Of a stretch of DNA of 54,993 nucleotides, positions 5,246 through 52,933 are shown piece after piece. Each line of letters starts with the position of its first letter. Within the stretch, counting starts at the first letter, position 1. The notes under the pieces are model-generated. The model did not search any database and was not told the origin of the DNA. It saw only the letters and a program-made list of their open reading frames with translations. The position numbers were made by a program, and so were the translations under genes. Source of the DNA: a virus (Duplodnaviria > Heunggongvirae > Uroviricota > Caudoviricetes); IMG/VR virus record IMGVR_UViG_2923302340_000009, positions 1 to 54,993 of that record; one strand, given 5' to 3'.

Positions 5246-8647
<3,402 letters not shown>

Positions 8648-18125: not shown

Positions 18126-18144
18126 ATCCTCACTTTACAACGGG

Positions 18145-23184: not shown

Positions 23185-23256
23185 TATGAAAAGACAGGAA
23201 AAAATAAAATTTAAAAACAGTACATTACGAATGCTCAGACCTATCGTTTAAAGGAG

Positions 23257-23280
23257 TCGCAATACACACTGCAATACACG
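23257..23280. repeat. two tandem copies of GCAATACAC motif near left island end (putative integrase/AlpA arm sites)
   Basis: tcgcaatacacac tgcaatacacg; same motif three times at right end 33894..33947. Confidence 0.5.
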
Positions 23281-23980: not shown

Positions 23981-23993
23981 GAATATCAGCAAG

Positions 23994-24275: not shown

Positions 24276-24286
24276 AGCGTACTACG

Positions 24287-24829
24287 TTACTTATCTTTAT
24301 TCGGCTGCAACTTATCCGGTACGTTTCCGGCAGTTTCCATCAGATAATCGGACAGCATCAGCGGTATGTTTTCGTCAAGTTTTGCGCATGCGTTACAGGC
24401 TCTGATAACTTCTTTTTTCAGTCCATCCAGCATAGACGGCTTCATGTCGGGAAACTTCCTTGTCATGGCAAGCGGCAGGCTGTCCATGATTGAAGAAATC
24501 TGACTCGCCAATTTTGAAAGCACGTATATACAAAACGCTGTATCAATAACGTCGCCGCGTTCGCGCTCGTTTTTAAGCTCCTGCGCCTCTGCCTGTGCTG
24601 TCAGCAATCTGATCCTGACTCGTAGGAGTTCATCATCATCAATCTCGCCTTTGTCGTCTGTAATCTGGTTAATTGCATTGCTAACCCGATTGTCTATTAC
24701 GCTGGCAACATCATAAAACGCCTCGCGGCCTTTACGTTCAACGGGAGTCACTCCCCACTTGTCGAACGCTGTCGCACTTACACGGCAGCTTTGCGCCATG
24801 TTTTTTTTGTTCATCAGGTGCGATTTCAT
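24287..24829 (-). CDS. terminase small subunit-like protein (lambda Nu1 homologue) encoded by the island
   Basis: Aligns with lambda Nu1 core LTRAQADAQELKN...AFCTFVLSRIAGEIASILDGIPL; ATG at 24829 preceded by GGGGA; lies downstream of island cos. Confidence 0.75.
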   Translation of the reverse strand: MKSHLMNKKNMAQSCRVSATAFDKWGVTPVERKGREAFYDVASVIDNRVSNAINQITDDKGEIDDDELLRVRIRLLTAQAEAQELKNERERGDVIDTAFCIYVLSKLASQISSIMDSLPLAMTRKFPDMKPSMLDGLKKEVIRACNACAKLDENIPLMLSDYLMETAGNVPDKLQPNKDK

Positions 24830-24940
24830 CAATATCCCCACTTAAGTAATGTTTCAGGTTGGTGTATTGACTTTATCTTTTCCTTTTTATTCATAGAGAT
24901 AGAGCGAACAACAAAACCACCACCAGCACCCGAAAAAGGC

Positions 24941-25010
24941 TCATAAATAGCGAAAACCCGCGAGGTCGCCGCCCCGTAGCCTACCGGATCACCGGAAAGG
25001 ACCCGCCAGC
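24941..25010 (-). other. island cos site with canonical lambda-type cosN (GGGCGGCGACCT) and lambda-like cosQ-side flank, divergent cosB side
   Basis: Plus strand aaatagcgaaaacccgcg AGGTCGCCGCCC cgtagcctaccggatcaccggaaaggacccgcc (cosN 24963..24974); paralogous to prophage cos at about 37700. Confidence 0.75.
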
Positions 25011-25030
25011 CAGAGCGGGCCCTAATTTCA

Positions 25031-25414
25031 TCAACCAATCAGCTTATAGCGACCATCCCGTGCATTGCGGCGTACACGCTCAATCTTGAGGCATAGCGCC
25101 GCATCTGGCTTTTTTGGGACAGGTACGCGGCAATATTCAGAAGCGCGAGGAATATTATTTATCCAGTCGATCACTTCACTTAAATACCAGGCCTTACGCC
25201 CTTCCGTAACCTGCACACGCTCCGGGAACTCTCCACTAGCCTCAAGGTTTAGCAGTGTACGACGACTCAGGGTTGTAATTTCCATCACCTGATTCATATC
25301 AACAAGGCGCTCGCTTAAACACATTTTGTCAGCGATAGCTTTTAATTCCTCTACAGCTGGATTCGGGTACATCATTTCGGCAATTGGCTTAAGGTCATTG
25401 TAATCATTCTGCAT
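25031..25414 (-). CDS. AlpA-family HTH protein (second copy, in packaging module)
   Basis: Motif ITTLSRRTLLNLEASGEFPERVQVTEGRKAWYLSEVIDWI; strong SD AGGGGGA. Confidence 0.65.
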   Translation of the reverse strand: MQNDYNDLKPIAEMMYPNPAVEELKAIADKMCLSERLVDMNQVMEITTLSRRTLLNLEASGEFPERVQVTEGRKAWYLSEVIDWINNIPRASEYCRVPVPKKPDAALCLKIERVRRNARDGRYKLIG

Positions 25415-25425
25415 TGTATCCCCCT

Positions 25426-25767
25426 TTACACACGAGCCAGCGGCTGAACAGAAATACCTGAGCCAACAAACGCTGCAACCTTTACTGACAGTTCTTTAAC
25501 AGACTCAGGCCAGTTCAGAGCATCAACATTTAAGACACCTGTCTTATAGACCTGAGCCTGTGTTTTTTTCGCGGTGTCGATTTGTACAGCGGAAACATAA
25601 ACCGCTTTACCTACGCTCGAACCATCCCATACCACCAGTGCACCTGTTGCATCTTCCTGCATCAGTGGCGTAAATGCAGGAATTACCCCTTTATTAGCTG
25701 AAAATATCCCCAGCGTAGTCACCAGTGCTTCAGTGCCAGCCATGAGTTCAGTGTAATGAGTAGCCAT
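25426..25767 (-). CDS. head decoration protein, lambda gpD-like (island paralogue)
   Basis: 113 aa alignable to lambda gpD (PAFTPLM...VWDGSS...); SD AGGGGGAG. Confidence 0.75.
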   Translation of the reverse strand: MATHYTELMAGTEALVTTLGIFSANKGVIPAFTPLMQEDATGALVVWDGSSVGKAVYVSAVQIDTAKKTQAQVYKTGVLNVDALNWPESVKELSVKVAAFVGSGISVQPLARV

Positions 25768-25776
25768 TGCTCCCCC

Positions 25777-26823
25777 TTAGCCAATGCGAACGGTAACAAA
25801 ACGATTGATGCGGGCCGGTATTGGCTGTGGTGCTGAATGTGTCTGCACATATTCAATAGCCGGATCACCAGGCACAATATAGTTTTTCGGTGCAAGTTCG
25901 GCTTTAGTCAGCCCCATTCGGATTAGCTCCGGATCCTGAATACCGCCATAGGCGACAATCCCCTGAAGAGCCGTATTGCCAAGCACCATCAAATCAGGAT
26001 CAAGGAAATGTTTTTCTGTTCCGTCCTCGTCGGTATAACGCCCGCTGTAAACAACAATCGCAACATCGCCCATATACCCTTTAAAACTCACCGAATCACC
26101 AAGGTCTTTAAGGGCCGTTTCCAGTTCGGAATTAGAACCACGACGGGTATCCAAAGCCTCTTTTATCGCTCTGAATGAACGGTATTTCTTCCATACATTA
26201 CCACCCATAATGATGATATTAGTGACGCCCTCACTAAATTCTGCGTAGCTCTCAATATCATCATTTGGATCAAAAGTTTCTTTATCCTTACCTGACCACT
26301 CAGTACCGCCAGACTGAGTGATGATATTTTGTGGTTTTATATTCCAGTCCAGCTCATAACGTTCAATACCATCGCCCTCAATGATATTTTTCCCCGTTGT
26401 GATTGCCTGAACAGCAAGCCATTCAATACGTGCACGAATAGCTTTAGCCTGATTTACAATCGCCTGTTTAACTTTAATATTACGCGCCCCAAAAGCATTG
26501 TATTGCTCAGGTGACACACCAGCAGGGCGCACAGCTAACTTATTTGGATCAATGCTGCTTTTCGGCTTCATATAACCTGGACGAATTGTTTTTGATTCGT
26601 ATCCCTCATCTCGTGAAACTTTACTGCCCACCATAGGAGAGCAAAACGCCGCGATCGGGATATTTGGATCGTCGATCGTATCAAGAATAATGTCTCTCGA
26701 TTCAAACATTACCGAGCGAGTGAAAAACAAACTGGTAAACAACGCATTTAATTTTTTTTGCACATCTTCAGCATTAGCCACCTGCACAAGCTGTGTAGGC
26801 GAATATAAATCAACCATACTCAT
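25777..26823 (-). CDS. major capsid protein, lambda gpE-like (island paralogue)
   Basis: Roughly half identity to lambda gpE by eye across C-terminal two-thirds (QSGGTEW...LDTRRGSNSELETA...VAIVVYSG); start at MSMVDLYS with SD AAGAGGA. Confidence 0.8.
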   Translation of the reverse strand: MSMVDLYSPTQLVQVANAEDVQKKLNALFTSLFFTRSVMFESRDIILDTIDDPNIPIAAFCSPMVGSKVSRDEGYESKTIRPGYMKPKSSIDPNKLAVRPAGVSPEQYNAFGARNIKVKQAIVNQAKAIRARIEWLAVQAITTGKNIIEGDGIERYELDWNIKPQNIITQSGGTEWSGKDKETFDPNDDIESYAEFSEGVTNIIIMGGNVWKKYRSFRAIKEALDTRRGSNSELETALKDLGDSVSFKGYMGDVAIVVYSGRYTDEDGTEKHFLDPDLMVLGNTALQGIVAYGGIQDPELIRMGLTKAELAPKNYIVPGDPAIEYVQTHSAPQPIPARINRFVTVRIG

Positions 26824-26988
26824 CCTCTTTACATTCATTACAAATAATTGTGAATATATTCTATTACCGATGTCTGCTATGCGAACACATGCAACCAAGT
26901 GCAATGTTGTATAAAATATGCCGTAACAACTTCAGTGCTGATAATTCGTGTTAATGTATTTACTTCCTTTGGTCGGGATTTATGTAGC

Positions 26989-27028
26989 ATGCCGGAAAAT
27001 CTATTTTTTTCCGGCATCTTTTTGTTTG
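26989..27028 (+). terminator. plus-strand hairpin with T-tract between island ssb and capsid genes
   Basis: atgccggaaa / tttccggcat 10-bp stem followed by ctttttgtttg on plus strand; both neighbouring genes are on minus strand. Confidence 0.35.
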
Positions 27029-27034
27029 CAGAAT

Positions 27035-27457
27035 TTAAAACGGTATATTATCGCCGTACGGATCATCATTCCCCGACTGTTGTTTTGCCCTGTTCAGTGC
27101 GTCAGTGGCCTGCCCCTGCTGGCCTTTTTTGCCGCCCGGTCGCGCCGTTCGCGCACTGATTACGCTGTCTGCGATAACCTGCCAGCCCCGCCGCGTTTCG
27201 CCGTTCTGGCCTGTCCACTGGCTTACCTGCATGTTACCCGCCACGCTCACCAGTTCGCCTTTGTGGTGTTTTGCCAGTGCGTCGGCCTGTCTGCCAAACG
27301 CCAGGACGGATAACCACATCGTCGCCGTTCCGTCATCTGCCTGGCTGCACGGCAGGGGAACCGCCATACTCGCCATCGCCATTTGTGTCCCTTTGCTGGT
27401 GGTCTTTAACTGCGGGTCAGCCACCAGCCGCCCGTAAGCCGCTATCTGTGCTGTCAT
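27035..27457 (-). CDS. ssb: single-stranded DNA-binding protein (SSB-like)
   Basis: 140 aa with Gly/Gln-rich linker and acidic C-terminal tail DDPYGDNIPF typical of SSB. Confidence 0.75.
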   Translation of the reverse strand: MTAQIAAYGRLVADPQLKTTSKGTQMAMASMAVPLPCSQADDGTATMWLSVLAFGRQADALAKHHKGELVSVAGNMQVSQWTGQNGETRRGWQVIADSVISARTARPGGKKGQQGQATDALNRAKQQSGNDDPYGDNIPF

Positions 27458-27768
27458 GCTGTCTGCTCTCCGGTTTTAACATTGATGGTTGTCACCTGTT
27501 CCGCTTCGGCAATCTCCCGTTCTGTCAGCGTGGCAAAGTTTGCCGCTGCTGTGGTCATAAATGCGCTTATCAGGTCGGGATGTTCCTTCGCGTATCCTGC
27601 CCGTGTGTGGTGGTCTATCGCTTTGATTGCCACCTTTAAGGAAAGCTCTGTCATGTCTAACGCTTTATATTTTGCCTGTGTTCTGTCTCTGCGAATTTTG
27701 GTCATTTGTCGCCCCTGATTCATGTTTTCGGCTGGCATGTTTGTTAAGTGATTTTTATGTATGCGCAT
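27454..27768 (-). CDS. hypothetical protein translationally coupled to ssb
   Basis: 104-aa ORF; stop overlaps ssb ATG (ATGA). Confidence 0.45.
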   Translation of the reverse strand: MRIHKNHLTNMPAENMNQGRQMTKIRRDRTQAKYKALDMTELSLKVAIKAIDHHTRAGYAKEHPDLISAFMTTAAANFATLTEREIAEAEQVTTINVKTGEQTA

Positions 27769-27819
27769 TTATTTTCACCCCCCCTCGTTTAAAAAGTTTT
27801 TAGTTGTGCCTCCCCCCCT

Positions 27820-28045
27820 CTACCCATCTACCCGAATGCTCATCATGTCAGTAATGGCGCCGCTTTCAGCGGGTAGATAGCTTTTTTGACTCCTCTACCT
27901 GCCGTCTACCCTGCTACCTGAAACTGATAAAATCAGGTAGAAGAGGTAGAGAGCTTTTATTAGCCTTCTACCTAGCCCTATATCCACTTATCATGTTGAA
28001 TAATATGCATTTATTTCGTTCAGGTAGATGGGGTAGATGGCTTTT
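27820..28045. repeat. iteron cluster (GGTAGA / TCTACC motifs, about 12 copies in both orientations); putative island replication origin
   Basis: ctctaccc, atctaccc, gggtagat, aggtagaagaggtagag, ggtagatggggtagatgg immediately upstream of primase gene. Confidence 0.7.
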
Positions 28046-28053
28046 ACAAAAAA

Positions 28054-29808
28054 TTATAAAAACGCGTCGCAATCGTCTGTTGTAATTGCGTTGGTCTGCG
28101 TTACTCCCTTAACTTTTCGCGTAATATATTCATGCCCGTAAACTTTCGCCGCTGGCTTCATGGCCTTGCTGAACTCAGCCACGTTTAGCGGTTTGCTCCT
28201 GCCCGCGTATGCCATAAACGCCAGATAGACGCGGTAAAGGCTGTTCCTGGTCGTGTACTTCACTGAATCACCACCGCCACCCATCATCAGGCCGCGCGCT
28301 TCCTCCAGAAAATTCAGGAACTGGCAAAACTCAATAACCGGATCCGTCTGTTGCTTTATTGCCAGTGCTTCATCACCGTCACGCTGTTCCAGTAGTAAAG
28401 CCCGTGCCTTCTCAGGGTCGGTAAAGTTCGCCAGCAATCGGCGGATAATAACGGGGATTTCAGCCGCAATCTTTTCCGGTAGCTCCCTGTCTTTTTCGGC
28501 CTCACTGACGATATTGTCGAAACGGAAAATCACGCGACGACGTGCCACACCTCCGGCCCGTTCGGTGAATATCATCGGGTTGTTGTTGGTCGCCAGCACC
28601 ACCGCCCTGATTACCGCCGTGAAACGCTTTTCATATTTCGGGTTAATTTCCACGGGGTCGCCGCCTGTGATTTTCTTGATGCCCGTTCCTTCGCCTGTAT
28701 ATTTCGGCTGGTCAGCCAGGACGATAAGACGACTCCCGACAACCTGCGCACGTCCACCAGCATCATCAAGCGATGTCATTTCAGCGCTTACCGTGTTCTG
28801 TTTCCCTGCCAGAAGGCTGGCTATGTGTGTGAATGTACTTTTACCGCTCCCGCCGTCTCCGGTGGCCTCAATAAACATCTGCCAGTCGTACCGGTTCGCC
28901 ATAATCATGTACAGCGCGGCACATATACGCATCATCTTGCGCGGGTCTTTTCCGGCTGCGTGCTCAAGCCATTTATGAAAGTTTGGCGCGTTATCGCGGA
29001 TGTTCTCCCCTGGTGCTGGTGGCGTGTACTCAATGCCGTTGTGCGTGGTGATCCAGTTCTCCGGCGTGTGCGGGGAAAATTCCCCCGTTTTCAGGTCAAG
29101 CGCACCATTGGCGAACGGCAGCAAATCGCCAGACGGCTCGCCCATTGGTTCGGCAATAACTTTTAACGCTTCCACGGCGTTATTGATTACGCGCTTGCTG
29201 AAAGTGGCCCTGTGCTCTGAATAGATCGCCACCATTTCGCGGCTAAGTTCCATTGTGCTGACCGGACACCATACCCCGCCGCGCCATACGTGAACGATTT
29301 CACTTTCAGGATGTACGCAAACGCCATCAAAGCGATCGGCAAGCAACTGCGCGCGCTCACTGTCCGCCATCTGCGAAAGTTGCGCCTTTTGCTTTACCGG
29401 AAGCTCAATGACCAGACCATCAGAAAGATTCTGGCGTTCACGGGCCAGATATTCGCGCCAGGTCTGCACCTCCTGGCCGTGCATACCCTCAGGATAAAAA
29501 TTTGCATCCTGTACGCCTGCTGCCGCCAGCTTCTGACCAATCGCCTTTATCATTACAGGCGCAAGATATCCGGCCCTGTATATGCGTGCTGATTTTCGGC
29601 CTTCCGGCACAATTTGCAGATTATCCAGTTCGGATAGCTGCTGCTCCCCAAGCCACACAGGAGGCTCATTATCTCCGGCCATACGCGCATCATGTTCCTG
29701 CCATTGTTTCGCGTGTGCCCAGGCATCACTACCCGCAAAAATAATTACTTCTGTTCCTTTGTGTTTTATGCCGCGTGACTGCTGTTTTACGTTCGGTGCC
29801 AGTTTCAT
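28054..29808 (-). CDS. primase-helicase (P4 alpha-like replication protein with P-loop NTPase domain)
   Basis: 584 aa; Walker A GDGGSGKST; adjacent iterons; translationally coupled to upstream ORF. Confidence 0.75.
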   Translation of the reverse strand: MKLAPNVKQQSRGIKHKGTEVIIFAGSDAWAHAKQWQEHDARMAGDNEPPVWLGEQQLSELDNLQIVPEGRKSARIYRAGYLAPVMIKAIGQKLAAAGVQDANFYPEGMHGQEVQTWREYLARERQNLSDGLVIELPVKQKAQLSQMADSERAQLLADRFDGVCVHPESEIVHVWRGGVWCPVSTMELSREMVAIYSEHRATFSKRVINNAVEALKVIAEPMGEPSGDLLPFANGALDLKTGEFSPHTPENWITTHNGIEYTPPAPGENIRDNAPNFHKWLEHAAGKDPRKMMRICAALYMIMANRYDWQMFIEATGDGGSGKSTFTHIASLLAGKQNTVSAEMTSLDDAGGRAQVVGSRLIVLADQPKYTGEGTGIKKITGGDPVEINPKYEKRFTAVIRAVVLATNNNPMIFTERAGGVARRRVIFRFDNIVSEAEKDRELPEKIAAEIPVIIRRLLANFTDPEKARALLLEQRDGDEALAIKQQTDPVIEFCQFLNFLEEARGLMMGGGGDSVKYTTRNSLYRVYLAFMAYAGRSKPLNVAEFSKAMKPAAKVYGHEYITRKVKGVTQTNAITTDDCDAFL

Positions 29809-30104
29809 TTTTTACCTCTGAATCCGTTAATCATGGTTTTCATTTTCTGGATATTTCCCCACGCTTTTTCCCTGCTGATGGGCTTACTGCGGGGTGCGGC
29901 ATATACCAGGGAAAAATCACGCCGGAACTGATAAACAGGCATCACGCAGTCATAGCTATACCCCTCACGGCGGTAAGTGATGCGCCGTTCTGCCACGCCT
30001 TTAATCGTTACCGTGCCGCCGTATTTATCGCGGTAAATATCGCCGTTCATAAATTCAGGTCGAGCGGGGCCGCTGGCAATAAAGCCAGAATTTTTCATTT
30101 CCAT
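29805..30104 (-). CDS. hypothetical protein
   Basis: 99-aa ORF whose stop overlaps primase start. Confidence 0.45.
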   Translation of the reverse strand: MEMKNSGFIASGPARPEFMNGDIYRDKYGGTVTIKGVAERRITYRREGYSYDCVMPVYQFRRDFSLVYAAPRSKPISREKAWGNIQKMKTMINGFRGKK

Positions 30105-30121
30105 ATTATTTATTCCTCGAC

Positions 30122-30343
30122 TTAACTCGACTTATTTGATAGCAGGGCACTATTTATTGCGTCATTGAGTTTTTCTGCTGATTCATCAATAAGTGACAAC
30201 AGGCCATAAGCAATATTTGCATCTTCATTGTCATTTATGCAATCAAGCCACATATTTAATATTGCTTTTGCTGAATTATTTAAAGTTAATGAACTTTCTG
30301 CACATGCTAACAATTTAAAAAAGACTTCCCGTTCTGTATTCAT
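30122..30343 (-). CDS. hypothetical small protein
   Basis: 73-aa ORF in tightly packed three-gene array. Confidence 0.4.
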   Translation of the reverse strand: MNTEREVFFKLLACAESSLTLNNSAKAILNMWLDCINDNEDANIAYGLLSLIDESAEKLNDAINSALLSNKSS

Positions 30344-30535
30344 TTAATCCCCCACCAGCTTACTTTCTTCCTCAATCAAAAAACTAGCGACACTTCCCGA
30401 AAGACGCGCCAGTAGGCTCGCCAGTGCGGATATATCAGCATCTGTAATTTTGTTCGGGTATACCTCAAGAAGGCGGCAAATAATTTCTGTCTGGTGCGCA
30501 CGTTCAGCGGCTTCGTGTAATGTAATTTCCTGCAT
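30344..30535 (-). CDS. hypothetical small protein
   Basis: 63-aa ORF abutting neighbours. Confidence 0.4.
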   Translation of the reverse strand: MQEITLHEAAERAHQTEIICRLLEVYPNKITDADISALASLLARLSGSVASFLIEEESKLVGD

Positions 30536-30720
30536 TAATGCACCTCTTTTAATTCATACACTGCTGAAATAATGACTTGTGATAAGCCATATTCTGATGA
30601 TTCGCTTCTCACCGCAGCAATAGCCGTCTGAACATTAACAGCCTTCACATTCTGAGCGATACCAATTGTGTGGCCTATTGGGTTAACAGCTCGGGCAAAT
30701 ACACGGAAGGTTTTAAGCAT
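30535..30720 (-). CDS. hypothetical small protein
   Basis: 61-aa ORF with SD GGGAG; first gene of minus-strand array. Confidence 0.4.
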   Translation of the reverse strand: MLKTFRVFARAVNPIGHTIGIAQNVKAVNVQTAIAAVRSESSEYGLSQVIISAVYELKEVH

Positions 30721-31001
30721 GACTCACTCCCTGGCGGATTTTTGCAGCGAATACAGCAACACAACCGGACGGGCAACGGCTACGCGCTTCGCGTTCCGTC
30801 CAGGCGGTTACGTGGATGATTTGAGATTCTCCGGCACTCAGTGCCAGAAAACGCCACACAAAGGCCGTTTGTGTGTGTACAAGGTGTGGTATATGATTTA
30901 CAGCAACCATAACGGCTCCTAGTTTACGTTGTTGGTTAGACGCCCCGTATGTGTTCCCAGCACTGCGGGGCGTTGCTCTTTGTATTTCAACAATCCTTTC
31001 G

Positions 31002-31034
31002 GTGTGTTTCATGTTATGAGCGCATGAAACACAC
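31002..31034. promoter_or_regulatory. 12-bp perfect inverted repeat (gtgtgtttcatg N9 catgaaacacac) in divergent intergenic region; putative operator
   Basis: Lies between minus-strand small-gene array and plus-strand gene at 31101; half-site gaaacacac recurs at about 31071. Confidence 0.5.
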
Positions 31035-31100
31035 GTCAAGGCTTTTTGTATTTCTTTTTTTGTGTATACTGAAACACACCGATGATTAGGAGTTTCAGAA

Positions 31101-31406
31101 ATGGCAACGGCTAACAAAAACGCAAAATCACAACTGACAACTGTCAGAGTCCCACTAGATGTTATGCAAGGGATGGAATCCGTTAAGCTGGACGGTGAAA
31201 GCAATGCCGGATTTATCGTAACCGCCATGCGCGGAGAAATAGCCCGCCGCCAAGCAGAAGGCAGCGGAGAAAATCCCCTTGTGTCGTCACTGGATGCCCT
31301 GGCTAAGGTCGAACAAATCGGCATCAAAGCAGCCGAGGAGATCGGGCAACTCGTCACCGTCGCGCGTGAAGAACTCCAGCGACGCAAGGTCAAAGAGCAT
31401 GAATAG
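31101..31406 (+). CDS. hypothetical protein, candidate island regulator
   Basis: 101-aa ORF with SD AGGAG; divergent from small-gene array; downstream of operator-like repeats. Confidence 0.5.
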   Translation: MATANKNAKSQLTTVRVPLDVMQGMESVKLDGESNAGFIVTAMRGEIARRQAEGSGENPLVSSLDALAKVEQIGIKAAEEIGQLVTVAREELQRRKVKEHE

Positions 31407-31463
31407 CCAATATCAGCGCCATAGTTTGAGGAACGCAGGCGCATTGCTTTACAGGACAGCACC

Positions 31464-31643
31464 ATGAGCGACACAGAATCAACCAAAACACCATCACCAA
31501 CTCGTAAGAGACGACGCAAAAATATAGCGCATGAACATGAATCAGAAAGATTCGCACCTTGTTCGTTTGCTCTTGAGAAATTCCTTAAAGAGCACAGGAA
31601 AAAGCTCTCGTTGCAAACCTTGGAACGAACCAAATCTGACTGA
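31464..31643 (+). CDS. hypothetical small basic protein
   Basis: 59-aa ORF (not in track, below 60 aa) MSDTESTKTPSPTRKRRRKN...; followed by terminator. Confidence 0.3.
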   Translation: MSDTESTKTPSPTRKRRRKNIAHEHESERFAPCSFALEKFLKEHRKKLSLQTLERTKSD

Positions 31644-31709
31644 TCACATTGCCCACCAGCCGCAAATGTGGCATTGTTGGTGATGCTTTTGTTTTCCCTT
31701 GTTCCCACT

Positions 31710-31740
31710 GGCGACCCTTTTGCGGTCGCCTTTGTTTTGT
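31710..31740 (+). terminator. rho-independent terminator for plus-strand island genes
   Basis: ggcgacc-cttttgc-ggtcgcc hairpin followed by TTTGTTTTGT. Confidence 0.55.
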
Positions 31741-32318
31741 CACTGAATGCGGTTACCAAAGTAAAACTCAGGCTGATATTCACGTATCAGCGTTTTTTCT
31801 TCTTCCTCCAGCTCACGCTTTTTGCGCTTACATGCCTGTAGCTCCCTCCCCTTCTCGCTGGCACTTATTTGATATTGCTCTTTACGGCGGGAAAAATCCT
31901 GTAATGCACCCCACGGGATACCATAAGTCCCCGTTTTTCTGATACCTGGTATCACATTTCTGAATACCCAGTTACTGAAACGATGAGCAAATGTGCCAGG
32001 CGTCGTTGCTTTGCGGCTGCGGGCTATTAGTTTGTAGAAACCTGACTCAGAGATAATTCTCATATTCTGATTTCCTCCTGGGGTGTAAGTTAAATTTACT
32101 CCCTTTTCATCATCATCAAGCATCTGCAACGCCGTACGCGAATTGGTTAGTTCCAGCGCAGCACAAACATCTTTTGCAACAAACCACGGATCGCCGTTCA
32201 GATACACCACACGAACGTTCACACTATCAAAGCGCAGAACGACGAGATCACGAATATCGCAGAATTTTTTCACTGGACGAGCGTACCCCTTGCCCGTCAC
32301 GGCAATATTTTTATTCAT
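31740..32318 (-). CDS. BRO-N domain protein (antirepressor-like)
   Basis: N-terminal VVLRFDSVNVRVVYLNGDPWFVAKDVCAALEL resembles Bro-N/KilA-N family. Confidence 0.65.
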   Translation of the reverse strand: MNKNIAVTGKGYARPVKKFCDIRDLVVLRFDSVNVRVVYLNGDPWFVAKDVCAALELTNSRTALQMLDDDEKGVNLTYTPGGNQNMRIISESGFYKLIARSRKATTPGTFAHRFSNWVFRNVIPGIRKTGTYGIPWGALQDFSRRKEQYQISASEKGRELQACKRKKRELEEEEKTLIREYQPEFYFGNRIQ

Positions 32319-32334
32319 CGCGTTTTTACCTTAT

Positions 32335-32361
32335 AGACAAAAAACCCCTCGTGATGAGGGG
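32335..32361 (-). terminator. rho-independent terminator downstream of alpA
   Basis: On minus strand cccctcatcacgagggg followed by TTTTTTGTC. Confidence 0.55.
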
Positions 32362-32374
32362 CATTATTTACTGG

Positions 32375-32632
32375 TTATTGCTGTTTTGTTTTTCCAGGTT
32401 TCCATCCAGGATGCCACTCACCACGGATCCATGCCTGAACCTCTGAAAGTCGATACCCTGCAGCACGTTCACCGATCTTGATACGTCGCGGGAATTTACC
32501 TGCCTGCTCCATTTTCCAGCGTGTTGAGTTTGCCAGCGTGGTAAGTGCTATGCACTCTTTTTCACGAATGAACCGATCAATGTCCTTCATTGTGCGCAAA
32601 TCGTTTTCATCAACAAGAGAATAAATTGCCAT
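32375..32632 (-). CDS. alpA: AlpA-family transcriptional regulator/excisionase-like protein
   Basis: 85 aa; ...FPRRIKIGERAAGYRLSEVQAWI motif; immediately downstream of integrase. Confidence 0.75.
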   Translation of the reverse strand: MAIYSLVDENDLRTMKDIDRFIREKECIALTTLANSTRWKMEQAGKFPRRIKIGERAAGYRLSEVQAWIRGEWHPGWKPGKTKQQ

Positions 32633-32633
32633 A

Positions 32634-33875
32634 TCACACCACCTCTTTATTAAGCTCGATAACGTTGTTGTTAAATCCTGCTATCGTATTAAGGTAATTA
32701 ACCCACATATTAAGCACCTCAAGTTTTTTCTTTATATGCCTGCTTTTATTGTAAACACCAGCAACCCCTTTCACTTTATGACCTAAAAGAAGTTCGACAA
32801 TATAAGGATCCGCCCCCATATCATTAAGCGTAGTGGAAAATGTGCGCCTGAAATCATGTATGCACCACAAGCCATTAGTATCATGACCAAGACGCCTGCA
32901 TATTCTGTTTGCAGCCCCTGTTATTGTCGCCCTTTGCAAAGCACAACCGACAACATAACCGCGATTTTTTGTTTCTGCGTAAAGATTAACGATCCATTGT
33001 TTTATTCCGTCAGGAACAGGCCTTACTATAGCCTCCTTGTTTTTGCTGTGCTCTTTTGGGACTGTCCATACCCAGTTTTTTAAATCCCATTCGTCCCAGG
33101 TGGATAGCCTCGCCTCCTGCTGTCGGCAACCAAACACCAGGCAGATAACCATTATTCTTCGGTTATATATTGATGACAGAGTTAGCAAATTATTACCGTA
33201 AGCATAAGACCATACATCAGCGGTTTCATTGATATTAAGAACGCGATCCCTTATACCGGATGAGCGCCCGACATAACTTACGTTAATATCTCCAAAGGGA
33301 TCGCACGCGATGTATTGCCTGACGCGACAAAAACGCAACGCCTGTTTGATATCAAGAAAAATTGCACCAGACATAACAGGCGCATTTTTTTTGATCCTGT
33401 CAAAGACGGTAAGCCATGTGTGTAATTTGCACTGTTCTATAGCCATATCACCGATATAGGGGAAGATATGCTTTTCAAATCGTTTTATTAAATATTCATG
33501 CTCTTTTCTGGCTGTTGTGGCGTGATTGTCGTACCAGTAAAACAGCGCATCCCTTACGGTCACTGGTTGCATAGTTTTTTCGGCAGCAAGTTTTATTTGC
33601 CTGCGGGGGTCCAGATTTTCAGCCAGCCATTCACGGCACTGATCACGCATGCGCCTGGCCGTTGCAAGAGACATGTCAGGATAGCGACCAAGTGTAAGCC
33701 ATACCGGAGGGAATTCCCTGCCACCAAGACGATAGTAAAAAACAAAGCTGATCCCCCCAACCATGCTTACACGCACAGACAACCCGCGCCCATCCGCTAT
33801 TGTTTTTTGTTTGTCCTGCCGTTTTCCGACAAGACTCTTTAACAGTTTGTCACTGAGTTTGTTTTCAATAGCCAT
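32634..33875 (-). CDS. int: P4-type tyrosine integrase
   Basis: 413 aa; P4-like N-terminal arm-binding region and C-terminal HDFRRTF...LLGH...Y catalytic region; adjacent to island end. Confidence 0.85.
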   Translation of the reverse strand: MAIENKLSDKLLKSLVGKRQDKQKTIADGRGLSVRVSMVGGISFVFYYRLGGREFPPVWLTLGRYPDMSLATARRMRDQCREWLAENLDPRRQIKLAAEKTMQPVTVRDALFYWYDNHATTARKEHEYLIKRFEKHIFPYIGDMAIEQCKLHTWLTVFDRIKKNAPVMSGAIFLDIKQALRFCRVRQYIACDPFGDINVSYVGRSSGIRDRVLNINETADVWSYAYGNNLLTLSSIYNRRIMVICLVFGCRQQEARLSTWDEWDLKNWVWTVPKEHSKNKEAIVRPVPDGIKQWIVNLYAETKNRGYVVGCALQRATITGAANRICRRLGHDTNGLWCIHDFRRTFSTTLNDMGADPYIVELLLGHKVKGVAGVYNKSRHIKKKLEVLNMWVNYLNTIAGFNNNVIELNKEVV

Positions 33876-33893
33876 TAAAAGCCCTCAAGAGAT

Positions 33894-33947
33894 TTGCAAT
33901 ACACACCCATCCCGATCGCCAATTTGCAATACACATTGCAATACACA
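33894..33947. repeat. three direct copies of TTGCAATACACA next to integrase start (putative arm-type binding sites)
   Basis: Copies at about 33894, 33924, 33936; same motif at left island end. Confidence 0.55.
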
Positions 33948-34023: not shown

Positions 34024-37004
<2,981 letters not shown>

Positions 37005-38174: not shown

Positions 38175-38600
38175 TTATTGAGGACGCTGGAGTAATCCGT
38201 GCTGAGCGAGAGTTAGAGCAATGTCATAAGACCCTTGCCTGTCTTTATAGCAAGTTTTATCAACTAGCTCAGCTTTGCTAATTCCGGGTAAATCAAGAAT
38301 CAGATTCGCAACTTCAATTGCCCTTTGGTACAACTTACCGATCTTTTTCTCCCCATGATGTGGTTTTACATTCTTCAGATAACCGCTATCCGCCAGAGCG
38401 AGAAACGTTGCCCTTGGGCATCCCTTCTTTCTTGCCGATTCGCTTTCTGTAACCTCAGCGACAGCAGCATCCCATGCATCACGCGGGGATATTGAATTAT
38501 CAGCAACCAAATAATAAGCAATTAAAGCGGCGCGCGCGTATTGAGACATAATGCATCCATATACAAAAATCTTATGATAAGACTTTTCTAATATGAACAC
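38175..38600 (-). CDS. hypothetical protein between Rz and cos (moron position)
   Basis: 141-aa ORF; likely starts at internal Met (MSQYARAAL...); no family recognised. Confidence 0.45.
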
Positions 38601-39031: not shown

Positions 39032-39504
39032 ACCTCAATCTCACTGACCGTTCCGCCTGCTTCTTTGAATTTTGCAATCAGGCTGTCAACTTTATGCTCG
39101 AACTGACCATAACCAGCGCCCGGCAGTGAAGCCCAGATGTTGCTGCAACAGTCGATTGCCTGACGGATGTCACCGCGATCAATCATTAGTAAAGCACCAC
39201 GCTCCTTAATCTGCTGCAATGCAACAGCATCCTGGCTTTTAGGAGAGAAGTCTGTCAGCCCTAACTGCTTGCGGTAAGCATCCCACCAGCGTGAAAGAAG
39301 TTGATAACGGCCTGCGGCTGTTGATTTGAGTTTCGGGTTTAGCGTGACAAGTTTTCGAGGGTGATCGGAGTAATCAGTGAAGAGTTCGCCACCGACAATA
39401 ACGTCATAACCGCGGTTACGTGTCGGTTGTCGCCCGTTATCCGTTCCTTCTGACCACGCCAACATATCGAGGAAAGCTTTACGCTGAGGATTAAGATTTT
39501 GCAT
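39028..39504 (-). CDS. R: endolysin R (lytic transglycosylase)
   Basis: 158 aa, matches lambda R ([17 protein letters not shown]...). Confidence 0.93.
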
Positions 39505-39808
39505 TTTTCACCCCTGTCAGTCGTTCCCAGAAGTACGTCAGTGCAACCGAGCCCATCGCACCACTAATCCCCGCTGTCGCGAGAATCATGTAAATACTGA
39601 ATCCACTTTCGATACTGATCAGGCCACCAATAACACCGGTGAATCCCGATACCACTATCTGAGCCAGAGCATTTATCCAGCTCCACGTTGCTTTACTTTG
39701 CTTCACATCTATCAGATAGCGGACCAGACCGCCCCAACCTGCGATGATCAGCAAAACGAGCCAGAACGCTCCGGCAAGGCTCTCTTTTTCGTGCATATGA
39801 ATAGCCAA
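39491..39808 (-). CDS. holin (non-lambda type)
   Basis: 105 aa with predicted TM segments directly upstream of R; not lambda S; apparent non-ATG start. Confidence 0.7.
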   Translation of the reverse strand: MAIHMHEKESLAGAFWLVLLIIAGWGGLVRYLIDVKQSKATWSWINALAQIVVSGFTGVIGGLISIESGFSIYMILATAGISGAMGSVALTYFWERLTGVKNAKS

Positions 39809-40025
39809 TGTTTCGCCGCCGACGAAAGGCCGGGACGCTAATGATTAAAAACTTACATGGGAAATATTGTTATAAACAGTCAACTCAAAAATAACTAAAA
39901 AATCTTATAACTACGCGAATGGCCTTCAAAAGCCGATCCGTGCAACTTGCATAAAACGATCTTTATCAATGAGTTACATGTGTGGTTAAATACCATGCTT
40001 TAAGGACTAAGAGCATTACCAGCAG

Positions 40026-40829
40026 ATGACAGAAAAAGATAACATTGGTAAGTTAATTTGGCATATTGCTTGCGATGAATCTGGCATTGATGGGCAACGT
40101 TTCTACGGCTTTGGCAGTCTGTGGATGAAGTACCAACGCCGTGGGGATTTCTGTCAACTAATCAGAGAACTACGCAGCAAACATGGTTTTTTTGAAGAAA
40201 TAAAATGGCAAAAAGCCCATTCAAAAAGATACTCTGAATTTTATCTTGAGCTGATCGACTTATTCTTTAGAGTTCCTTGGCTAGCTTTTCATTGTATCGT
40301 GGTTGAAAAATCAATAGTAAACAAGGCATTTCATAATGGGGATTATGACCTGGCAAGGAGAAAGCACTTCACAAATCTCATTACCACAAAAATTAGCTCT
40401 GTAATTTCTGCACACCCTGAAAGAGACAGTTACTTCAGGATTGAAGTTGATCCTATCGCATCTCGTTATAAAAAGGCCGATGAAGAACTAAATGTTATTG
40501 CCAATAACATATTGAATAGAAAATTTGGTCGTAAAGGGATAATCAGCAGTGTAGTGACAAAAGACTCTAAAGCATCTGAAAACATTCAGCTAGCCGATTT
40601 TTTCTTAGGTGCGGTTATGTGCGCATATCAAGGAAAAGCTTCATCTGAAGCCAAAATAAGAGTATCAAACTATGTTGCTTCATATTTAGGCTGGGATCAT
40701 TTGCAATATGATACATGGCACACTGAGAGAAAATTTAATATCTGGTATTTTTATGATAAAACTCGAGGGCCACGAGATATAGAAACTCAAAATGTTAGCT
40801 TAAAGTATCCACTTCCCCAAAAGAAATAG
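40026..40829 (+). CDS. DUF3800-like protein (moron between Q and lysis genes, opposite strand)
   Basis: N-terminal DESG motif (IACDESGIDG) and C-terminal QLAD motif (IQLADFFLGAV) characteristic of DUF3800 as I recall it. Confidence 0.6.
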   Translation: MTEKDNIGKLIWHIACDESGIDGQRFYGFGSLWMKYQRRGDFCQLIRELRSKHGFFEEIKWQKAHSKRYSEFYLELIDLFFRVPWLAFHCIVVEKSIVNKAFHNGDYDLARRKHFTNLITTKISSVISAHPERDSYFRIEVDPIASRYKKADEELNVIANNILNRKFGRKGIISSVVTKDSKASENIQLADFFLGAVMCAYQGKASSEAKIRVSNYVASYLGWDHLQYDTWHTERKFNIWYFYDKTRGPRDIETQNVSLKYPLPQKK

Positions 40830-41050
40830 ACGTCGACCTCTCAGCCGACACGGTTGGAGTCCCAGACCAATTATCGAGTCGAAGTTACCAACTTGGCGGT
40901 TATCTTTTGGGAGCCGCCCCTTCATTCCCAAAACCTTTATTGCAGAAAAATCTATATCCTGGAAATTGGATAGTCAACCCTTACGACACCTACGAACAGT
41001 TGCACATACAACATTGGCAAAATATCAGATTTACACGGAATATATGCCTT

Positions 41051-41740
41051 TCAATCCAGTTTTGCAATACTTTGCTGTGAAAATGTCGTCTTTTGTTTTG
41101 AACGTGTTCTCGTTACAAGCAATAAAGCTTCGCTATCAAGCTGTAGAAAAATGTGCTTCATTGCAACCCAGCGTTCAGTAAATGTCTCAGACCAGTTTTT
41201 TGATGTCACTCCCACCAGTGATGCCAGCTCCTGGTATTCATAGGTCTTACGCCCTGCCAGCTCATTCTTCACATCCTGTGCCGCCAGCCAGATCAACTTC
41301 TTCAAACGTTCCAGTGTCTTACCTGCAATTTTCCTGGTACCCAACAGAGTCTTAAACTCGCTCCATACCCACTGCGTTATGGTGACCTGATGTTCCCAGC
41401 GAACACTTTCGCTGTAACTCCACAGCAACCACGCTTTCTGATGTTCTTCGAGAGACAGAACCGCGCGGCGCCATGAAGATGTTGAGAACTCAACCTGGCT
41501 GACCAGTGCAATGGATGAACCTTTTGCGTACGACTGCTTACCGGAAATCGGCGGATTATCCAGCGTAATCATCTTGCCCGTTACCTCATCCAGAATGCGC
41601 GGCTTCTTTCGTTTATATGTACCAGTATCAAATTGTGCATGCTCCAGCCAGGCTTCAAGCTGGCCTTTCGTTGCTCCGCTCAAATCAGCAGTAGCCACAA
41701 TGAGTTGCTCGCGGACATACTGTAAATATTGGGTATTCAT
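41051..41740 (-). CDS. putative late-gene antiterminator Q-like protein
   Basis: 229 aa at the Q position between rusA and lysis cassette; start at internal ATG with SD AAGGAG; assignment by synteny. Confidence 0.55.
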   Translation of the reverse strand: MNTQYLQYVREQLIVATADLSGATKGQLEAWLEHAQFDTGTYKRKKPRILDEVTGKMITLDNPPISGKQSYAKGSSIALVSQVEFSTSSWRRAVLSLEEHQKAWLLWSYSESVRWEHQVTITQWVWSEFKTLLGTRKIAGKTLERLKKLIWLAAQDVKNELAGRKTYEYQELASLVGVTSKNWSETFTERWVAMKHIFLQLDSEALLLVTRTRSKQKTTFSQQSIAKLD

Positions 41741-41873
41741 GCGGCAGCTCCTTTCAGTGTTTTGGCGTAATTCTTCAGTATTCGGTAATCGGTCAAAACA
41801 GAACCGGGGAAACGATATAAGCGCAGACGCCACCAGCGGTGGCGAAGAAGTTCTGCCATATAAAACTCAAACA

Positions 41874-43328: not shown

Positions 43329-44639
43329 CTATGGATTAGAGAGTGAATCTGGATGTGGTATTTCAGCCATGACCTCCTCTGCATCACAGTTGTCGATAAA
43401 AAAGTATAAAGTTGAGTCAACAATTTTTAAACGCCTGGTACCTTGATCATAATCGAATAATGGCGGAACGATATTCTGATTTGTTTGAAGTATAGGCAAT
43501 CGCTTCAGTGTCCCTGTTACATCAGAAGTTCTGACGTTATCAGGATGAGTATGTATTTCTTTAATAAGTTCCTGTAGAGTCTTTCTCTCAATCCCATCCT
43601 TGAGCTCAGAATAAGTTCTACTTAACAGAACTTGAACTAAATAATACTGAAGATACAAAGCCACAGCCTCTTCACTTGGCCTGCGACTTCGACTCCCTGC
43701 GGCAATTGACTCAAGACTACGGACATGTCTTGACGAATAATCTGCAACCTTAACGTCAATTGCTCTTTGTAGAACGGCCATATCACTCAAATAAACTACT
43801 TCTTGTTGGACCATTCGTATTCCTGACAATTCACAAAGTTGCTTAAGAAGCTCTTGCACTACTGCAACACTTCCATGGGCCTCTTCAAATATACGCTCTT
43901 TAATTTGCTCTGAAATAGATATATTTAAACACTGCTCGCCAACTGTAGCGATTCTTGAAAAGTCACCTTTATCCCATGGCTCAACAGGAACCTCAGCCAT
44001 ACGGTCCTGTAAGTCGCCATTAAACTGAATAAGACGATTATTTTCTCTCCATACTCCGAGTATGATAAATCTAATACCCATTTCTTCAAATGTACGAAGA
44101 TCAAATGCCAACTGTCCTTGAACTTCAACAGAGAGATAATGAAAGTTTTCGAGAACGAAGAACTTATCCTTCCCGCCAACATTAATCAATAATTCTCCTA
44201 CATCTTGTGCCGCCGTCAAGTTGAACTCAATCGGCCTAGATTTTGTTTCTGTATTTTTGGATATCGTCCCTTCAACCCCCGCCTCTACTTCAGTTTTTGC
44301 TAAAAATGGCAGGATGGCAGAAAAAGTGCTTTTTAAAGACGCTGAAGCCTCCTTAGAGTTACCTGTTGTTCTCTCGGTAATAATTTCCACTCCAAAGTGA
44401 CGTAAAAATGTACGATAGATATCTTCCGCAGAATTGGTGGGACCACAATGATATGTAACCCTGCTGTTTTCATCTAAATGGCGCTGAAGTAAGGCTGTTT
44501 TCCCTTGTTTTGATGAGCCATAAATCACGATCTGCTTCGTCGTTGCAAGTGCATCAGCAAGTGCCTGATCGACCTTTTCACGTTCAATATAGCTGGCTAC
44601 CGGATCTCTTGATACTCCGAATACATTATTTAGATGCAT
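43329..44639 (-). CDS. P-loop NTPase (AAA-like ATPase) of unknown function; nin-region moron
   Basis: Walker A GSSKQGKT, Walker B-like FFVLENF; AT-rich gene flanked by AT-rich DNA. Confidence 0.6.
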   Translation of the reverse strand: MHLNNVFGVSRDPVASYIEREKVDQALADALATTKQIVIYGSSKQGKTALLQRHLDENSRVTYHCGPTNSAEDIYRTFLRHFGVEIITERTTGNSKEASASLKSTFSAILPFLAKTEVEAGVEGTISKNTETKSRPIEFNLTAAQDVGELLINVGGKDKFFVLENFHYLSVEVQGQLAFDLRTFEEMGIRFIILGVWRENNRLIQFNGDLQDRMAEVPVEPWDKGDFSRIATVGEQCLNISISEQIKERIFEEAHGSVAVVQELLKQLCELSGIRMVQQEVVYLSDMAVLQRAIDVKVADYSSRHVRSLESIAAGSRSRRPSEEAVALYLQYYLVQVLLSRTYSELKDGIERKTLQELIKEIHTHPDNVRTSDVTGTLKRLPILQTNQNIVPPLFDYDQGTRRLKIVDSTLYFFIDNCDAEEVMAEIPHPDSLSNP

Positions 44640-44825
44640 GGTTCATTTCCTTGTTATAAAAGAAAAATCTTAGCATATTAATACATTAATAACTTCCGCC
44701 CCTTGTTTAACTGTACAATTAATAGACTTTTATGCCTCCTACCCAATGACCGGAAGAATATCCGTAATACCTAGCCCCATTTATCACCTTGTCATGAGTT
44801 GAATCCGAGGTCCGTAGCCTCCCTA

Positions 44826-45028: not shown

Positions 45029-45361
45029 TTAATGTAGTGCACTTCGTGACAACAAATTAATCACCAACACACCGGCACAAATCAACATCATGCCTATAAT
45101 GGCTGGCAGGTCCAGCCGTTGGCCGAAAAATCCCCATGACAGTAAGCTAATCAGGACAATCCCGACTCCTGACCAGATAGCATAAGCAATCCCTGTAGGA
45201 ATATAAGCCAGCGTCTGAGCTAATAACCAGAATGATGCACAGTAACAAATAATTGTACCAACAGATGGCCATAACCGTGTAAAACCTTCTGAAAACTTCA
45301 TTAAGGTTGTACCAATGACCTCTGCAAGTATTGCACCACCAAGATAAATATAAGGGTTCAT
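45029..45361 (-). CDS. emrE: small multidrug resistance efflux protein EmrE
   Basis: 110 aa from MNPYIYLGGAILAEVIGTT; near-identical to E. coli EmrE. Confidence 0.92.
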   Translation of the reverse strand: MNPYIYLGGAILAEVIGTTLMKFSEGFTRLWPSVGTIICYCASFWLLAQTLAYIPTGIAYAIWSGVGIVLISLLSWGFFGQRLDLPAIIGMMLICAGVLVINLLSRSALH

Positions 45362-51717: not shown

Positions 51718-51869
51718 CGCATCCTCACGATAATATCCGGGTAGGCGCGATCACTTTCGTCTACTCCATTACAAAGCGAGGCTGGGTATTTCCCGGCCTT
51801 TCTGTTATCAGAAATCCACTGAAAGCACAGCGGCTGGCTGAGAAGATAAATAATAAACAGGAGGATATA
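51714..51869 (+). CDS. small ORF downstream of exo (lambda orf60a-like N-terminus)
   Basis: 51-aa [31 protein letters not shown]...; ATG overlaps exo stop. Confidence 0.45.
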
Positions 51870-52933
51870 TGAGTCAGGTTGGTAATCATTCATTCGAATT
51901 TCCGGCATCGCAAGGTGTACAGGGTGGTACTGTTACACTCTTCCTTACCATACCAGGAAGATCGCTGGCTCGTTTCCTCGCTTCAGATAATTACGGCCAT
52001 ACACTGGAACGCTCTCAGCGAGAAATTAATCCAAATCGAGTACGAAAATTTTTAAATTATCTCACTAACGCAGACTCAAGAAATGAGCCTTTTATCATTC
52101 CCCCTCTCGTAGGTAACTGTGATTCGAATATAGAATTTGTACCGTTTGGCAACACAAATGTTGGTATAGCCAGAATTCCCCTCGACGCCGAAATAAAACT
52201 TTTTGATGGTCAACATCGTGCAGCTGGCATTGAGATATTTTGCCGAAGCTCCCCATCAACGCTCATGGTTCCCATGATGCTTACAATGAATCTGCCGCTA
52301 AAAACCCGGCAGCAGTTCTTTTCGGACATAAATAACAACGTTTCTAAGCCATCAGCGACCATCAATATGGCGTATAACGGCCGGGATGATATTGCTCAGG
52401 GAATGATATCCTTCCTGACCCAACATACTGTATTTGCCGATATAACCGATTTTGAACACAACGTAGTGCCATTAAAAAGTAATATGTGGGTGAGTTTCAA
52501 GGCACTCACTGATGCAACGTCAAAGTTCGCTAGGAACGGCAATCAACAACTTGAAATGGGATATATAGAATCTGTCTGGGAGGCATGGATTACACTAACT
52601 CAGATTGACTCAATTCGACATGGTGTACACCACGCTACGTACAAGCGCGATTATATTCAGTTCCATGGAGTAATGATTAACGCTTTCGGTTTTGCGGTTC
52701 AACAGATGATGGTTAATCATTCCATCGCAGAAATAACTTCTATGATCGAAAAACTATGTGCAACTACCAGCTCTGCAGAAAGAGAGGATTTTTTTCTGAT
52801 GGATAACTGGGCGGGGATCTGCACGAAAGCCAGCCAGGAAAAACTATCTGTTATTGCCAATGTGGCAGCGCAGAAAGCAGCAGCAAACAGACTGATACAA
52901 GCTTTTACCAAAGGAAGTCTGGAAACAACTTAA
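51869..52933 (+). CDS. DGQHR-domain protein (DndB-like), stand-alone
   Basis: Exact DGQHR motif (KLFDGQHRAAGIE); 354 aa; SD AGGAGGA; between exo and xis. Confidence 0.65.
   Translation: MSQVGNHSFEFPASQGVQGGTVTLFLTIPGRSLARFLASDNYGHTLERSQREINPNRVRKFLNYLTNADSRNEPFIIPPLVGNCDSNIEFVPFGNTNVGIARIPLDAEIKLFDGQHRAAGIEIFCRSSPSTLMVPMMLTMNLPLKTRQQFFSDINNNVSKPSATINMAYNGRDDIAQGMISFLTQHTVFADITDFEHNVVPLKSNMWVSFKALTDATSKFARNGNQQLEMGYIESVWEAWITLTQIDSIRHGVHHATYKRDYIQFHGVMINAFGFAVQQMMVNHSIAEITSMIEKLCATTSSAEREDFFLMDNWAGICTKASQEKLSVIANVAAQKAAANRLIQAFTKGSLETT

Follow-up and report, generated by a model that had tools for sequence, protein, structure and literature searches.

We analyzed a gene of the DUF3800 family and a structured RNA that lies convergent with it in the late region of a lambda-like prophage (Caudoviricetes). 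The window, meaning the whole stretch of DNA analyzed, comprises positions 1 to 54,993 of the IMG/VR record IMGVR_UViG_2923302340_000009 (54,993 nucleotides, nt) and is 100% identical over this stretch to the chromosome of Escherichia coli CFSAN018748 (NZ_CP028192). The gene, an open reading frame (ORF) at 40026..40829 on the plus strand, begins with ATG and encodes 267 amino acids (aa); its coordinates are exactly those in the program-made ORF list, and RefSeq labels the same coding sequence (CDS) in CFSAN018748 ‘DUF3800 domain-containing protein’ (WP_064226622.1). On its two sides lie the gene for the antitermination protein Q (41051..41833, or 41051-41740 with the RefSeq start; minus strand; PF06323, E = 1.5e-94; phrog_304), which forms the upstream border of a cargo slot, and the holin gene (39491..39808, minus strand; PF16083, E = 8e-22; phrog_785), the first late gene downstream of that slot. 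The map order is Q, DUF3800 gene, holin, lysozyme, Rz, DUF6979 gene, Nu1 and TerL, with all phage neighbors on the minus strand. An initial annotation, made from the sequence alone, had placed the gene in the Q-to-holin interval and had it transcribed against the late operon, and the minus-strand Q, holin, lysozyme, Rz, Nu1 and TerL genes confirm both points.

The initial annotation had associated the 267-aa product with DUF3800 through its DESG and QLAD motifs, which we located in CDESG (residues 16-20) and IQLADF (residues 187-192). The assignment held in Pfam, where PF12686 matched with E = 1.2e-10 and 42.7 bits, above the gathering cut-off of 21, positions 4-146 of the 149 in the profile covering residues 16-197; the protein also matched phrog_3732 (6e-137). 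At E ≤ 0.001 there were 501 full-length homologues with 53-99% identity, from many Gammaproteobacteria and from myxobacteria, and 58 alignment columns were invariant. Full-length homologues and invariant columns exclude a chance ORF, and the gene is real. DUF3800 proteins are defined by an N-terminal DE motif and a C-terminal QxxD motif (PMC7736814); here D17 and E18 in CDESG and Q188 and D191 in Q188-L-A-D191 were invariant in 33 homologues.

The predicted fold of the protein is RNase H-like, with a core at about residues 9-200 that is followed by a conserved C-terminal extension (205-267), and published analyses also assign an RNase H-like fold to DUF3800 (PMC7736814, PMC10910872, PMC12669027). 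The proposed catalytic residues are D17 and E18, which end strand 1, D142, which ends a later strand, and D191, which lies within the QLAD helix; all four are invariant, and their arrangement in the predicted structure is as expected for an RNase H-type DEDD site. Compared with RNase HII/H2, the predicted fold matches and the four invariant acidic residues stand on the expected elements, yet sequence identity is just 13%. No link to RNase HII by sequence was found in Pfam, and a search of PDB sequences with the family profile gave no match. We infer that the protein is an RNase H-fold nuclease and probably not an orthologue of RNase HII.

The initial annotation overlooked the coupling of this gene to an adjacent late-leader RNA. 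In an all-against-all comparison of flanks, about 110 nt 3′ of the stop codon were conserved among Enterobacterales loci whose proteins are just 70-87% identical. A pattern derived from this block matched at least 120 viral contigs. A DUF3800 gene is present in 18 of the 121 viral stretches with the same late-leader RNA and the rest have other ORFs or none, which bears out the earlier view of the interval as a variable cargo site; the gene varies among related phages and is not a conserved structural gene of the late region. In the remaining stretches the block lies ~147 nt downstream of a Q-like gene and ~490 nt upstream of lysis genes (~74 loci). Its commonest sequence is the pR′ leader of phage lambda (checked against NC_001416), which makes the block a homologue of the lambda 6S RNA core, the lambda counterpart being NC_001416 ~44,608-44,721 (809-922 of our lambda locus, L204). 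Lambda 6S RNA is a short transcript from the constitutive late promoter in lysogens to which “no function has been ascribed” (PMC7547250).

In the window the lambda 6S-type structured RNA occupies 40824..40942 on the minus strand and occurs as a single copy, with a covariance-model match of 102.7 bits at 40824-40939; lambda itself scored 108 bits with the same model. Its elements, all on the minus strand, are a pseudoknot that pairs 40927-40933 with 40905-40911, helices P4 (40914-40918/40895-40899), P2 (40888-40892/40853-40857) and P3 (40877-40880/40865-40868), and the P1 hairpin (40843-40849/40832-40838), which has a GAGA loop. Directly after P1 comes a U-rich tract, UAUUUCUUUU (40819-40831, minus strand), antisense to the final lysine codons and the stop codon of the DUF3800 gene. 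Upstream of the RNA is a putative sigma-70-type late promoter, the probable equivalent of pR′ (40949..40977, minus strand; TTGACT-17 nt-TAGATT, 9/12 consensus matches), from which a start is expected near 40942. Homology to lambda and the position behind Q and a sigma-70-type promoter mark the RNA as a member of the late-leader family. P1 and the U tract suggest, as judged from their sequence, termination before the late genes.

The structure was evaluated in an alignment of 42 distinct sequences in the sense of the late transcript, with slid pairing partners as the control. Across the four helices and the pseudoknot, 95.9% of alignment cells were paired, against 27-56% in the slid controls, and compensatory changes occurred in 12 pairs (P1, P3 and the pseudoknot), to which the Gilliamella copy adds one in P2. 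Two invariant G-U pairs and the GNRA loop in P1 can form on the minus strand only, and this assigns the RNA to that strand. The single-sequence folding energy is unremarkable (z = 0.11), and it is therefore covariation that carries the case for the structure. Rfam gave no relevant family at the gathering threshold across the whole window or at E ≤ 10 in 39400-41400, nor did it give one in 11 homologous loci or in lambda, SI5 and Chuche. The core fold of four helices and a pseudoknot covaries across lambdoid, P22-like and other phages, and Rfam 15 holds no family for it.

Three other interpretations of the block were rejected. It is not a plus-strand element of the 3′ untranslated region, which is ruled out by the G-U pairs and GNRA loop possible on the minus strand only and by the homology to the lambda leader. 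Nor is it a DUF3800-specific RNA, as the family occurs mostly downstream of Q with no such gene, one sub-type being gene-linked. A 43-codon minus-strand ORF at 40800-40931 was dismissed as a non-gene, since its homologues show 1-nt or other non-triplet loop indels and compensatory changes in pairs.

We found 29 distinct modules of gene plus RNA in Enterobacterales and Gilliamella, with the RNA convergent in each and the stop codon 24-43 nt ahead of the scan pattern, which places it no more than ~35 nt from P1. Pairwise identity between modules is 74-95% in the RNA core and 65-83% in the CDS, and beyond either end of the unit it is ~50% (alignment noise). At ~0.30 identity, four-fold degenerate sites have reached saturation; the RNAs become more alike as the proteins do. 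A short 5′ end and the pseudoknot UUUUGGGA/UCCCAAAA characterize the linked RNAs; for 16 of 17 of them the nearest neighbor is another linked RNA. Where the gene sits in a P2 slot, follows cI in Gilliamella or adjoins a retron or a primase, this sub-type accompanies it, and in modules of every genomic context a sigma-70-like promoter site precedes the pseudoknot by 12-19 nt. In two modules from the P2 context (L009 and L011), identity is 0.41 at four-fold sites and 0.95-0.96 in the RNA.

One account of this linkage makes the 6S-type RNA a working partner of the nuclease, as antitoxin or decoy, as guide, as antisense regulator of the 3′ end of the mRNA in the manner of type I toxin-antitoxin systems, or as self-marker. 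We consider it possible but doubtful. In its favor, no part of the module is more conserved than the RNA core, which diverges in step with the protein, the linked RNAs form a sub-type of their own, and the RNA stays with the gene and keeps its promoter-like site outside late operons (P2 slot, cI, retron, primase). At least 11 unrelated structured RNAs are linked to DUF3800 genes, in one orientation or the other (PMC5737381), and an mRNA with no plus-strand terminator may read into the RNA gene and have a sequence complementary to the RNA. On the other side, homologues that are 63-68% identical are single-gene integron cassettes without the RNA, ~100 of the 121 viral stretches with the RNA family lack a nearby DUF3800 gene, and the layout is unlike that of known RNA-antitoxin systems. 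In the self-marker variant, the nuclease may attack the 6S-type leaders of incoming lambdoid phages and spare its own sub-type. A more specific proposal, that the lambda 6S-type leader, which each incoming lambdoid phage would make in abundance from its constitutive late promoter, is the cognate RNA of DUF3800, by which the protein would be triggered or which it would cut, with the module's own sub-type marking self, so as to spare the late transcript of its prophage, or acting as an antitoxin that keeps the enzyme inactive, strikes us as distinctly unlikely.

The linkage could instead be hitch-hiking, in which the gene landed beside a late leader that was later carried along as a terminator, an insulator or recombination homology; the protein would work alone, and the RNA would be retained solely for its leader function. 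That the RNA family serves chiefly as the late leader of lambdoid phages (the ~74 loci downstream of Q and upstream of lysis genes, and lambda), that the Q-to-holin slot receives other cargo in both orientations and that the integron copies do without the RNA would all be in line with this. The RNA is strongly constrained, however, where neither Q nor late genes are present (as in L009 and L011), its stems are preserved by compensatory changes while its loops vary, and the specificity of the sub-type spans the whole RNA, beyond the gene-proximal end. We regard hitch-hiking as unlikely.

Several observations mark the DUF3800 gene as accessory. Its G+C content is 0.36-0.39, against ~0.50 in both flanks, and the complete gene occurs in 44 of 5426 finished E. 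coli genomes, several more copies being truncated by IS1 in decayed prophages. In E. coli ANT and T16R (L205, L206), prophage remnants by trkG or icd have the DUF3800 gene truncated or replaced by IS1 and keep the holin-proximal spacer. No high-identity copy of the gene was found in deposited phage genomes, and no protein neighbor was conserved across 72 genome loci. The only conserved portion of the upstream region, as seen in 18 diverse modules, is a block 35-75 nt 5′ of the ATG (39953..39991, plus strand), which consists of AAAACGATC (GATC at 39958-39961), a -35-like TTATCA (39963-39968), a 17-nt spacer that ends in TGg and a -10-like TTAAAT (39986-39991). This block is probably the gene’s own promoter; a generic promoter scan did not list it.

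The homologues occupy slots known for collecting defense genes. Some lie in other Q-to-holin intervals, in which three unrelated Q families adjoin the same module, namely PF06323 (window prophage), PF03589 (L002) and PF06530 (L005, L006 and L008). Those in P2-like prophages sit between the portal gene and gpA, with a KAP NTPase (PADLOC PDC-S49) or a PIN protein as neighbor, and the P2-like phage Chuche carries a homologue as well. In a Gilliamella prophage the homologue lies directly 3′ of a CI-type repressor gene on the same strand, and other homologues have a P4-type primase, a type I methylase or a retron RT-Toprim I-C next to them. In Vibrio, Colwellia, Psychromonas and Ferrimonas, homologues that are 63-68% identical to the window protein (L012, L013, L017, L018, L020, L021, L022 and L067) are bare integron cassettes bounded by attC sites, with TAACAA at the stop codon and GTTAGGT or GTTATAT at the cassette ends. 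The Colwellia and Psychromonas cassettes are flanked by repeats of ~400 nt that are 91% identical and lie inside attC-bounded integron-cassette arrays, not beside a partner RNA. At a Xenorhabdus hominickii locus (L006), a gene for a Tad2-like (Thoeris anti-defense 2) protein lies between Q and the DUF3800-RNA module (7195-8070, minus strand), which would make a putative anti-defense gene adjacent to a putative defense gene.

PADLOC matched the window protein to a candidate model, PDC-M04A (PDLC04353; E = 7.7e-35), which the Chuche, Gilliamella and Colwellia homologues match too. This match and the defense-slot locations form the whole case for a defense role, which is circumstantial; the proposal of the initial annotation that the gene is a defense or abortive-infection candidate is fair as a candidate. 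That the gene instead serves the phage or itself, as an RNase H-like enzyme of replication or recombination, in the degradation of host nucleic acid, in anti-defense or as a selfish nuclease whose targets are sites adjacent to structured-RNA genes, we consider very improbable. The RNase H fold is indeed common to resolvases, transposases and replication RNases, the insertion point is invariably the P1 end of the RNA, and the Tad2-like gene shows anti-defense cargo in the same slot at one locus. The orientation opposite to the late operon and the gene’s putative own promoter, however, argue for expression in the lysogen, most related phages lack the gene, and homologues are found as integron cassettes and in defense islands. 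Moreover, no terminal repeats, inverted repeats or target duplications of the kind that mark transposon ends were seen around the gene-RNA unit.

The explanation that we favor, and to which we give an even chance, is that the gene is an intact moron of a defective lambda-like prophage and encodes a metal-dependent DUF3800 nuclease, expressed from its own promoter for host protection and silenced by late antisense transcription. The protein would be a stand-alone, metal-dependent nuclease with an RNase HII-like fold, most likely produced in the lysogen under the control of the gene’s own promoter. Its most likely role would be to protect the host from other phages by nucleic-acid cleavage, in the form of superinfection exclusion or abortive infection. 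The conserved unit of ~1.0 kb would comprise the promoter block, the gene and the convergent, separately promoted RNA of the lambda 6S sub-type, which in the window prophage would be the leader of the late operon. In the lysogen, the constitutive late promoter would give a short RNA that stops at P1 and the U tract overlapping the DUF3800 stop codon. Upon induction, Q-modified polymerase would pass P1, cross the gene antisense and reach the holin gene 1.1 kb downstream, and this passage would turn the DUF3800 gene off during the prophage’s own lytic growth. Late antisense transcription through the gene follows from the RNA next to it being the late leader, a step that we infer. With no plus-strand terminator, the DUF3800 mRNA may also run on into the RNA gene and so base-pair with the leader, an abundant RNA, which would add post-transcriptional control. 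Overall, the locus holds a real DUF3800 cargo gene that is a plausible candidate for defense, with a previously unreported RNA partner.

Several points weigh against this explanation. Because integron-cassette homologues of the same protein clade lack the RNA, the RNA is not obligatory for protein function. A P2-like locus (L153; ~1258-1294 in IMGVR_UViG_2778261450_000003) carries the sub-type RNA and no DUF3800 gene; this is either what a deletion left behind or a case of the RNA being used independently. At L153 there is also a ParM partition gene, and ~370 nt separate the RNA from the preceding 287-aa ORF, possibly that of the portal. The promoter call for the DUF3800 gene is based on conservation and consensus alone, and the Shine-Dalgarno sequence in the window is weak. 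As to the features of lambdoid morons, atypical composition and variability are present and the promoter-like block is conserved; a scan found no plus-strand terminator 3′ of the gene. Termination of the late leader at P1 is uncertain because its stem has seven pairs, two of them G-U, and a scan found no strong separate tR′ hairpin before the holin gene. With regard to defense, PDC-M04A is a candidate model only, with an ‘M’ label that implies a multi-gene system, and the partner PDC-M04B is absent among the neighbors scanned with PADLOC (Q, holin, lysozyme, Rz, RusA, a DUF1364 protein and NinB). The location argument amounts to guilt by association, and the literature searched yielded neither a phenotype of a stand-alone DUF3800 protein nor leads on PDC-M04 or PF12686.

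Other parts of the prophage carry further cargo. The portal gene is split into halves (~22405-23178 and ~34024-34905) by a satellite-like element of ~10.7 kb (~23200-33900), which encodes an integrase, a helix-turn-helix regulator, BRO-N and Icd-like proteins, a primase, a single-stranded DNA-binding protein, its own major capsid and decoration proteins and a small terminase, and which resembles a capsid-forming phage-inducible chromosomal island. An IS66-family element (ISCro1; tnpA, tnpB and transposase genes) lies at ~16554-19169 among the head-tail joining genes, and this insertion makes the prophage probably defective. In the nin region, a gene at 43329-44639 (minus strand) encodes a 436-aa AAA-type protein that matches the PADLOC candidate PDC-S59 (E = 1.5e-72) and is a second candidate for defense cargo in the same prophage. 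A gene for a DGQHR-domain protein lies in the exo-bet-gam region (51869-52933, plus strand; PADLOC DndB, E = 4e-37), with no further dnd genes seen nearby. The multidrug efflux gene emrE (~45029-45361, minus strand) lies inside the prophage beside ren, and the order emrE, ybcN, ninE, ybcO, rusA, ylcG, Q is one that we associate with the E. coli K-12 prophage DLP12. The DUF6979 gene (38175-38600, minus strand; phrog_5039) is a small piece of cargo between Rz and cos/Nu1 at the end of the lysis cassette.

The DUF3800 family is widespread and recurs in immune contexts (retrons, CRISPR accessory genes and PADLOC candidates) and beside enigmatic structured RNAs. Its membership here was already annotated, and the association of DUF3800 with RNAs in general is known; new relative to the literature searched are the stand-alone architecture, the distribution over defense slots and, most notably, the constant pairing with an RNA of the lambda 6S type. 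The locus is a tractable case in E. coli, with a single gene and a single RNA forming a 1-kb unit within the classic lambda setting. If the pairing is functional, it bears on the role of DUF3800, on why the family travels with structured RNAs and on whether late leaders are more than by-products of antitermination. If the leader were the cognate RNA, it would give a role to lambda 6S RNA, an orphan for 50 years, and would explain why DUF3800 genes lie beside unrelated structured RNAs. Even if the RNA is a mere neighbor, a conserved pseudoknotted fold of the lambda late leader that is missing from Rfam has been defined, and the locus offers a model for opposite-strand cargo that would be switched off by the late transcription of its prophage.

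The window protein shares its Pfam family, the D-E motif and a predicted RNase H2-like fold with the DUF3800 proteins of type VII retrons and of CRISPR types V-A2 and VI-F (Cas12a2/a3) (PMC7736814, PMC10910872, PMC12669027). Occurrence in immune-system contexts is a further common trait. The window protein differs in standing alone, with no reverse transcriptase, tetratricopeptide repeat (TPR) domain or Cas gene nearby. Retron-linked DUF3800 proteins lack the Q of QxxD (PMC7736814), while the window protein keeps it and has a conserved 60-residue C-terminal extension. A type VII retron is not indicated, in that no reverse transcriptase is annotated in the window or among the ORFs at 37-44 kb and Rfam found no retron RNA.

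Weinberg et al. (2017) described the motifs DUF3800-I to -XI, which lie beside DUF3800 genes in either orientation and frequently have 3′ terminators (PMC5737381). The window likewise has a structured, independently transcribed RNA beside DUF3800, in convergent orientation; in contrast to those motifs, its homologue is a known phage transcript, lambda 6S RNA. In a comparison made with Rfam models, none, including DUF3800-I (RF02969) and DUF3800-IX (RF02968), matched the window even at E ≤ 10. Like lambda 6S RNA, which runs from pR′ to tR′, the window RNA follows directly downstream of Q and has a sigma-70-type promoter in front of it, and it aligns with the lambda leader. The linked sub-type differs from that leader in lacking its first ~25 nt and in its pseudoknot (UUUUGGGA/UCCCAAAA), in having no separate tR′ hairpin, the U tract immediately after P1 falling within the 3′ terminus of the gene, and in occurring also away from Q. 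StxS, from Stx phages, shows that such short late leaders, constitutive in lysogens, can act as regulatory RNAs (PMC7547250).

A small constitutive structured RNA beside a putative nuclease on mobile elements is likewise found in toxin-antitoxin systems of the ToxIN type (type III) and the hok/sok type (type I). Unlike the RNA of ToxIN, the window RNA is single-copy, downstream, convergent and at the 3′ end of the gene; no family of tandem or direct repeats, and hence no ToxIN-like tandem RNA array upstream on the same strand, was found in 39780-41100. Cargo that is encoded on the opposite strand or expressed in lysogens includes rexAB of lambda, which follows cI, nmpC of DLP12, which lies between quuD and essD, and stx, which occupies the Q-S interval. 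The DUF3800 gene follows the same logic of low G+C content, a putative promoter of its own and variable presence, and its Gilliamella copy occupies the rexAB position; it differs from these examples in its product, a predicted nuclease.

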